From positions 1 to 64,000 of IMG/VR virus record IMGVR_UViG_2825563536_000001: DNA of 64,000 nucleotides; one strand, 5' to 3'. This stretch comes from a virus (taxonomy: Duplodnaviria > Caudoviricetes). A model generated the notes under the pieces. It had not been told where the DNA came from, did no database searches, and saw only the letters and a program-made list of their open reading frames with translations. Positions within the stretch are counted from its first letter, which is position 1; the number at the start of each line of letters is the position of its first letter. Shown here one piece after another: positions 28,661 to 29,212 of this stretch. The position numbers and the translations under genes were made by a program.

Positions 28661-29212
28661 TTGAGCACTACCCTGACCGCTGCCGACATCGCCGTTTCGG
28701 CGCTCGACGAGCTGATGCAGCGGTCGAACCAGTTCCGCAAGTACGCGATCACGGAGCGCGACACCAACGCCCGGCTCGGCACTGTGTCGCCGCCGTACCT
28801 GCGCCGCGACGTCGTGCACGCGTTCGTGCTCACCGAGTCGGCGCCCCGCGGCATCGCGGTACCGCTCGATCGGACGCTCAACATGTCGATCGCTGTGCGG
28901 TTCAGGGATTTGTGCCAGTCGCCCGCATGGTTCGAGCACATGCACATCGCGCCCGCGATGCAGGCTTTCGCCGAGAAGCTCGACTACGAGGTGGCGAAGT
29001 TCGCGCGCGCCAACGGGGAGGGCGATCCGATCGCGCTCGCGTCGGCGCCGCTGCCGATCGGCTTCCCCGGCCTCCCGCCGGGACGCGAGGCTGTCGCGAC
29101 CGGTGAGGGCGTATCGCTGCGGGCCGTGATGCAGTACGACATCGGCAAGATGAGCGAGGTCGTCAGCCTGGATGTGCTGTACGGGCTGCGCGTGATCGAA
29201 GGTGCCGCATGA
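28661..29212 (+). CDS. Internally deleted P22-coat-like capsid protein homologue
   Basis: [36 protein letters not shown] and [12 protein letters not shown]...VVSLDVLYG segments, in P22-coat order. Confidence 0.65.

Follow-up and report, generated by a model that had tools for sequence, protein, structure and literature searches.

A paralogue of the major capsid protein without an A-domain, encoded away from the head genes in a temperate actinophage

The DNA analysed here (the window, 64,000 nucleotides) comes from a virus record of 92,135 bp, of which it makes up the first 64 kb; the record is estimated to be 95% complete. At positions 28661..29212 on the plus strand lies a gene with a TTG start and a TGA stop, which encodes a protein of 183 aa, called the mini-capsid protein (mini) below. 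The gene was called on the basis of the open reading frame list, its GC content at third codon positions (GC3), its homology to the phage's own major capsid protein (MCP) and its dN/dS. A GGAG ribosome-binding site could be read from the sequence 5 nt 5' of the TTG (28652..28655, plus strand). The GC3 value was 0.89 in a genome of 69% GC, and the capsid gene was found to be alike in third-position GC. The mini gene overlaps both adjoining genes by 4 nt: the stop codon of an upstream frame of 98 aa (28368..28664, plus strand) overlaps its start (TTGA), and the start codon of a downstream frame of 76 aa (29209..29439, plus strand) overlaps its stop (ATGA). The stop codon of the 76-aa frame is in turn overlapped by the TTG start of nrdF, the gene of the ribonucleotide reductase small chain (29436..30461, plus strand; Pfam PF00268, E 1.4e-91). 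Family searches with the 98-aa and the 76-aa frames gave no match, so that no functional family could be assigned to the genes adjoining mini in the window. The wider region contains RtcB, NT5C, RusA, metallophosphoesterase and cREC_REC genes, and the long operon to which mini belongs here also includes nrdF and genes of RNA repair.

An earlier, sequence-only reading of this DNA had described the gene as translationally coupled and next to nrdF. The coupling was confirmed; the adjacency was not, because the 76-aa frame lies in between; nrdF is moreover absent from the nearest relative. The nrdF gene was present in the window phage and in a second relative (L006), and it was missing from L005, the nearest relative, a Rhodococcus hoagii contig with 94% identity. 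Immediately 3' of its 76-aa gene, L005 has a homologue of the 117-aa gene that lies 3' of nrdF in the window, so that nrdF is an indel between near-identical phages, and the edges of the insertion are the 4-nt start/stop overlaps. The product of this 117-aa frame (30461-30814) was 74% identical to its L005 counterpart with a dN/dS of 0.56, while the flanking genes were 94-98% identical; as judged from these sequences, it is another fast-evolving gene of the operon. The 76-aa frame, 97-99% identical in L005 and L006, was considered as a conserved partner of mini and rejected, as it was kept only in close relatives and the neighbours of distant family members were unrelated. Contigs without differences to window positions 20001-40000 were found in the RNA-Seq libraries of two studies (2020 and 2023) on one organism, so that the phage is apparently carried by a laboratory strain. 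Their cover over mini was low, and such contigs cannot show transcription, since carry-over of DNA is possible.

The phage's own MCP (311 aa) is encoded outside the window, on the minus strand at 88988-89920 of the record. It scored 71.6 bits against the Pfam family P22_CoatProtein (PF11651) and covered profile positions 2-215 and 347-418, indicating that the I-domain of P22 is already absent from this MCP. Against the same profile mini scored 21 bits (E 1.6e-4), below the gathering cut-off of 24 bits, and the match was confined to the C-terminal 56 aa (aa 123-178, profile positions 357-411). Mini matched no other Pfam family, and it matched PHROG 283 'major head protein' with an E value of 2.2e-8. 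Alignment with the own MCP by BLASTP, a comparison that had been proposed with the earlier reading, gave two collinear blocks: residues 57-116 of mini with MCP 67-124 (34% identity, E 1e-8), and residues 124-180 with MCP 246-298 (46% identity, E 6e-11). When an HMM built from nine members of the mini family was aligned to the MCP, HMM positions 5-119 corresponded to MCP 6-128 and positions 122-177 to MCP 243-298. These boundaries imply that the N-arm is homologous too, and that the missing piece is MCP 129-242. Absent from mini are thus the A-domain (MCP 129-242, ∼114 aa) and a C-terminal tail of 13 aa. In its N-arm, spine helix and P-domain mini is homologous to genuine MCPs, and it possesses no A-domain for the centre of a hexon or penton. 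It is a capsid-derived paralogue of the phage's own P22-type (HK97-fold) MCP from which the A-domain has been removed in frame.

These results bore out the earlier description of a P22-coat-like protein of 183 aa at this locus, and the similarity to capsid proteins seen with Pfam, PHROG, BLASTP, the HMM and the fold is well above chance. The segments that it had named (N-arm, V.LD strand, spine helix and the ALASAPL...SLDVLYG stretch) were all present and aligned with the own MCP, and the central part, which it had taken as probably the A-domain and as missing in frame, is indeed the A-domain and had no counterpart in mini. The claim that the gene lies far from the head genes was correct as well: with the MCP gene at 88988-89920 and mini at 28661, the distance is up to 60 kb, and ∼31 kb on a circularly permuted genome. 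Mini is therefore located outside the head module of this phage, in a non-structural part of the genome.

Five parts of the protein could be placed on the DNA, all on the plus strand. The N-arm helix (aa 7-27, 28679..28741) corresponds in the models to the MCP helix at residues 8-22 and keeps the N-arm residues conserved in MCPs. It is followed by a shortened E-loop hairpin with a mini-specific motif (aa 52-70, 28814..28870), which is identical at 19 of 19 positions in the family member P0002 and in which the MCP-conserved E-loop residues are not kept. The spine helix (aa 88-117, 28922..29011) equals the MCP helix at 98-127, with F91, P98 and A99 conserved as in MCPs. A six-residue junction (aa 118-123, 29012..29029), located by the HMM boundaries and the models, replaces the A-domain. 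The C-terminal P-domain β-sheet (aa 124-178, 29030..29194) is the part recognized by Pfam and PHROG, and in it, just as in MCPs, G150, R154, D171, L173 and G175 do not vary.

The structure of mini was predicted with AlphaFold2 from a nine-sequence alignment; the best model had a pLDDT of 72.8 and a pTM of 0.72, and the pLDDT of the other four was only 44-52. The model of the own MCP had a pLDDT of 77.9. In these two models the secondary structure elements paired one-to-one: besides the helices already mentioned, two strands (mini 65-69 and 71-79, MCP 74-78 and 81-89), a short helix (mini 81-84, MCP 91-94) and four strands of the P-domain (within mini 124-178 and MCP 246-296). The exceptions were MCP 131-242, which is the A-domain, and the last MCP strand at 302-305. 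Comparison of the mini model with the P22 procapsid coat protein (8i1v_A) by VIA-align gave a Z score of 13.9 and an rmsd of 4.2 over 166 of the 183 residues, spread over chain residues 2-420. Further VIA-align matches were HK97-fold capsids and encapsulins with Z scores of 7-9, and the best Foldseek matches in the PDB and in BFVD were HK97-fold capsids. The fold comparison suggested by the earlier reading thus pointed to capsids as the nearest structures. Some look-alikes in BFVD were short uncharacterised phage proteins, such as A0A6B9WTQ7 of Escherichia phage nieznany (170 aa, probability 1.0) and an uncultured-phage protein of 116 aa; to go by the models, these may be independent small proteins of HK97-like or helix-on-sheet fold.

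Mini belongs to a family of at least ten proteins of 146-195 aa on actinophage and prophage contigs. A word-indexed search retrieved a 92%-identical protein, encoded on a contig of 102 kb from an assembly of Rhodococcus hoagii (Prescottella equi), together with a 52%-identical one. An exhaustive profile search yielded P0003, P0004, P0005, P0007, P0015 and P0023 (146-187 aa), to which P0046 and P0047 were added by a second profile search. Among the hits of at least 284 aa in the exhaustive search, all but one matched in two or more separate stretches, and those that were examined further were MCPs. Several other searches found no further mini: tblastn of the window mini, P0004 and P0005 against 50,697 GenBank phages gave MCPs or nothing, pattern scans of IMG/VR and a scan of GTDB genomes gave no mini, and the look-alikes of mini in the ESM Atlas were all MCP clusters of ∼290-320 aa. 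A tree was calculated from the columns shared by minis and MCPs. The nine minis fell on one side of a branch with an SH-aLRT support of 93, and they were nested in a set, with a support of 99, to which ten MCPs of 289-400 aa, including the own MCP, belonged as well. The terminal branches of the divergent minis were 0.6-1.8 substitutions per site long, and the protein closest to the own MCP was not the window mini. On the sequences, the simplest reading is that the minis have a single old origin.

In seven of the eight gene contexts that were examined, mini was found in non-structural regions, mostly replication or early modules. It was located beside a DnaB/primase gene, an Acb2/Tad1-hairpin gene, SSB and RNase_T in L007, and beside an Rv2179c-like exonuclease, ParB and ParA in L009. 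In L010 and L013 it lies between SSB, YfdP, DUF2303 and Band_7 on the upstream side and an Rv2179c-like exonuclease shortly 3' of it, and in the 253-kb contig L017 it was found with YqaJ, RecT, WhiB, DnaB and SSB. L013, a 56-kb contig from Logan SRR29050538, carries two minis in tandem at 9456-10555, of 182 and 184 aa, which are 31% identical and overlap by 4 nt. The exception among the contexts was L021 (JGI 3300037418, 97.9 kb), in which P0023, a mini without the N-arm, is encoded 39 nt upstream of the portal gene. Positions 4817-10441 of this contig form an accessory island between the terminase and portal genes, with WDGH, Tad2-like, DUF1003, NMN-transporter-like and VIT1-like genes and then mini. 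A link of mini to the Rv2179c-like or RNase_T exonucleases, adjacent in three contexts, was considered and not upheld, because the window genome contains no Rv2179c-like gene.

All three mini phages in which this could be checked also carry a normal MCP of 304-316 aa from the same clade. The closest cultured MCP, with 62.5% identity to the own MCP, was that of Gordonia phage Aleemily. A search of its 987 open reading frames with the mini HMM recovered the MCP only and no mini; the next match was gene 128 with an E value of 0.069, which was taken as chance. A tyrosine integrase (PF00589) is encoded on the minus strand of the window at ∼52690-53940, within an open frame of 447 aa, from which we conclude that the window phage is temperate. 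These data showed that the minis form an accessory family of old origin, and that temperate actinophages carry them together with a normal MCP from the same clade.

The dN/dS of mini was 0.28 in comparison with L005 (∼94% nucleotide identity) and 0.78 in comparison with the divergent allele of L006. The earlier reading had proposed this measurement to distinguish a selected gene from a neutrally evolving pseudogene; the value against L005 indicates selection. Its overall picture of a capsid-derived, selected paralogue therefore stands, and the three functions it had offered for the protein (decoy, poison and assembly modulator) all remain among the readings weighed below. The minis retained the MCP-conserved N-arm residues T7, A12, A15, L16 and L19 (MCP numbering) and the MCP-conserved residues grouped as P-domain, namely D84, S86, F101, P108, A109, G268, R272, Y277, D289, L291 and G293, while the E-loop residues G43, R49, P51, F59, Q68 and E72 were lost. 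In most minis the latter are replaced by the motif HAFVLTxSAPRG(I/V)AVxLD, modelled as a short hairpin, which MCPs do not have; it was weaker or absent in P0007, P0015 and P0023. Over this motif (aa 52-70) the window mini and P0002 were identical at every residue, in proteins that are 52% identical overall and 29-61% identical in the rest of the sequence, and the DNA showed synonymous differences only.

The L006 allele of mini was 52% identical to that of the window, whereas the product of the adjoining 76-aa gene was 99% identical. Nucleotide identity between the two was 48-87% within mini and rose to 97-100% directly past its stop codon, and dS was 0.56 in the mini gene and 0.18 outside it, which implies that the L006 allele was exchanged and did not merely evolve fast. 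Window positions 28320-28660, including the 98-aa frame, could not be aligned with L006:341-525 (41-75% identity over short stretches), and the gene called 5' of mini in L006 matched a 68-aa frame of the window (75%) and not the 98-aa frame. Taken with the divergent mini, this unalignable upstream region indicates a divergent cassette of ∼0.9 kb that ends exactly at the mini stop codon. The minis diverged faster than their MCPs, with 44% identity where the MCPs had 59%. They were also no closer to the MCP of their own genome: P0004 was 38% and 36% identical to its own MCP, and 48% and 38% identical to the MCP of the window phage.

From these observations, the mini family probably acts on capsid assembly or on capsid sensing and not as a subunit of the shell. 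In HK97-fold capsids, contacts within a capsomer come from the A-domain and the E-loop, and those between capsomers come from the N-arm and the P-domain, which in P22 also contact the scaffolding protein. A protein with a shortened E-loop and no A-domain cannot complete a hexon or penton, but docking on the MCP or the scaffold would still be possible for it. Our leading reading, to which we assign a probability of about 0.35, is that mini is a non-polymerising analogue of the capsid subunit that binds the MCP, the scaffold or procapsid intermediates and modulates or poisons assembly. The retained surfaces of the N-arm and P-domain would dock it on these partners, and the docked protein would modulate or poison the assembly of shells, most plausibly those of related competing phages, or else the timing of the phage's own assembly. 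Its role would then be in conflicts between genetic elements rather than in building a shell.

Counted in favour of action on assembly were the pattern of residues, with those of MCP type kept in the N-arm and P-domain and replaced in the E-loop; the accessory behaviour of the gene, which is absent from Aleemily; the tandem paralogues; and the 52%-identical allele whose border coincides with the stop codon. The co-occurring MCP of the same clade in three of three phages, the member 39 nt from the portal gene and the temperate nature of the phage were also counted for it. Several points weigh against it. As the own MCP is of the same clade, a poison would endanger the phage's own heads too, unless timing or specificity protects them. 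The gene is part of the long nrdF operon, unlike the stand-alone genes that prophages express during lysogeny, and with its TTG start it is probably expressed at a modest level. Of the five AlphaFold models, a single one was confident. Moreover, the strongest conservation was found in a motif that is absent from MCPs, so that the key partner of mini may be other than the MCP.

A counter-defence role was considered nearly as likely as an effect on assembly, and it too is tentative. Mini, made before the MCP, might occupy or block, without activating it, a motif sensor of CapRel or Lit type, from the host or a prophage, that would read features of the N-arm or the P-domain in freshly synthesised MCP, or it might shield those features on the MCP itself. 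This would suit its non-structural site in the company of accessory and counter-defence genes (in the window RtcB and cREC_REC, in L007 the Acb2/Tad1-hairpin gene, in L021 the Tad2-like gene upstream), its faster evolution than the MCP (44% against 59%), and the allele swap and tandem duplication; the invariant tip of the hairpin could be an inhibitory epitope. Many systems sense MCPs, and CapRel homologues are common in Actinobacteria according to the literature. However, published work shows that Avs7, Avs8 and Avs10 bind the A-domain of the MCP, and this capsomer-forming face is absent from mini. A faithful mimic would also be expected to activate a sensor rather than silence it, and the minis do not track their own MCPs (as seen for P0004). 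Six family members had no match in PADLOC, and no anti-defence family was matched. In its specific form, the proposal is that mini mimics the trigger: a version of the phage's own capsid subunit without the assembly-competent A-domain, expressed ahead of the MCP, which blinds or jams CapRel-, Lit- or other motif-reading immunity. We regard this form as speculative and, on balance, rather doubtful. If true, it would define a trigger-mimic class of anti-defence proteins derived from the trigger itself.

It is unlikely that the capsid fold was taken over for a function unrelated to capsids, such as the use of the conserved hairpin to bind nucleic acid or another protein of phage or host. That the most conserved element, HAFVLTxSAPRG, is specific to minis speaks for such a role, as do the three contexts beside DEDD-type exonucleases (RNase_T and Rv2179c-like), though the window genome has no Rv2179c-like gene. 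The MCP-invariant residues of the N-arm and P-domain would hardly be expected to persist through such deep divergence, nor would mini be expected to co-occur only with the cognate MCP clade wherever this was checkable.

Slightly less probable still is a minor structural role, in which mini, with its gene outside the head module, would be a cement, decoration or vertex-associated protein docked on the shell through P-domain-like contacts. The retained capsid-contact residues and the L021 mini immediately upstream of the portal gene are compatible with it, and a precedent is offered by the mycobacteriophage Douge, whose capsid cement protein gp113 was solved on the genome-packed capsid together with gp8; its authors describe the cement protein as very short and unique in structure (PMC13033339). 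Like mini, gp113 is an actinophage protein that, by gene number, lies far from the head genes (gp5-gp13), but it was not reported to be derived from an MCP. Against a structural role are the seven of eight contexts in replication, early or otherwise non-structural regions, the TTG start, and the absence of mini from relatives whose MCP is 62.5% identical; a component of the lattice would also not usually evolve faster than the MCP or swap alleles. A decaying capsid-gene duplicate without function, to which the score below the Pfam cut-off and the dN/dS of 0.78 against the L006 allele might point, is effectively refuted by conservation: frames are intact in at least ten deeply diverged lineages, dN/dS against L005 is 0.28, GC3 is 0.89, translation is coupled with both neighbours and the invariant motif has changed only synonymously.

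Mini can be compared with several known systems. With the P22-type (PF11651) MCPs of actinophages, including its own and that of Aleemily, it shares a homologous N-arm, spine helix and P-domain sheet and the same invariant residues; it differs in lacking the A-domain and the C-terminal tail, in its shortened and re-patterned E-loop, in being accessory and faster-evolving, and in its distance from the head genes. The vertex protein gp24 of T4 is a full-length MCP paralogue encoded in the head module, and it serves as a structural subunit of the pentons. Mini resembles it as an MCP paralogue with a specialised role in the same genome, but is neither full length nor located in the head module. 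Fv1 and enJS56A1 are Gag-derived restriction factors, in which a truncated or derived capsid protein is turned against the assembly or function of related viruses. They are conceptual analogues only, because they are eukaryotic host genes of retroviral origin and their fold is unrelated to that of mini. For interference by a capsid homologue, the nearest precedent in function is the Ccm protein of SaPIbov5. Ccm is homologous to MCPs, co-assembles with the helper capsid protein, is reported to fill pentameric capsomers, and redirects assembly (PMC8569155, PMC5052747). Both proteins are capsid-protein homologues without being the element's shell subunit of record, and Ccm acts by engaging the lattice of a related MCP, as mini would in our leading reading. 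Ccm is encoded by a satellite and reportedly occupies pentons, whereas mini has no capsomer-forming A-domain and comes from a complete temperate phage with its own MCP; with a 92-kb genome (estimated 95% complete), an own MCP and an integrase, the window phage is not a satellite.

Literature searches on decoys and mimics of capsids, on capsid paralogues and on truncated capsids gave no account of a phage protein like this, in agreement with the earlier reading. The 'truncated' MCPs in a paper presenting an actinophage capsid dendrogram were considered as possible minis and set aside, as they were models that its authors had cut by hand. The family thus seems to be undescribed, and a capsid paralogue without an A-domain seems to be an architecture without precedent in phages. 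Proteins of the HK97 capsid fold are familiar as subunits of shells and as encapsulins; full-length paralogues that serve in piracy, like Ccm, are rare. A conserved family reduced to the N-arm and P-domain half and placed among accessory genes differs from all of these. The mini family would be a natural dissection of this fold, in which the surfaces that join capsomers are set apart from those that build them, and would add a case in which a virus turns a structural gene of its own to use in conflicts. Whether mini acts as a poison of assembly, as a mimic for a sensor or as a cement protein, it would in each case provide a handle on capsid assembly or capsid sensing in Actinobacteria.
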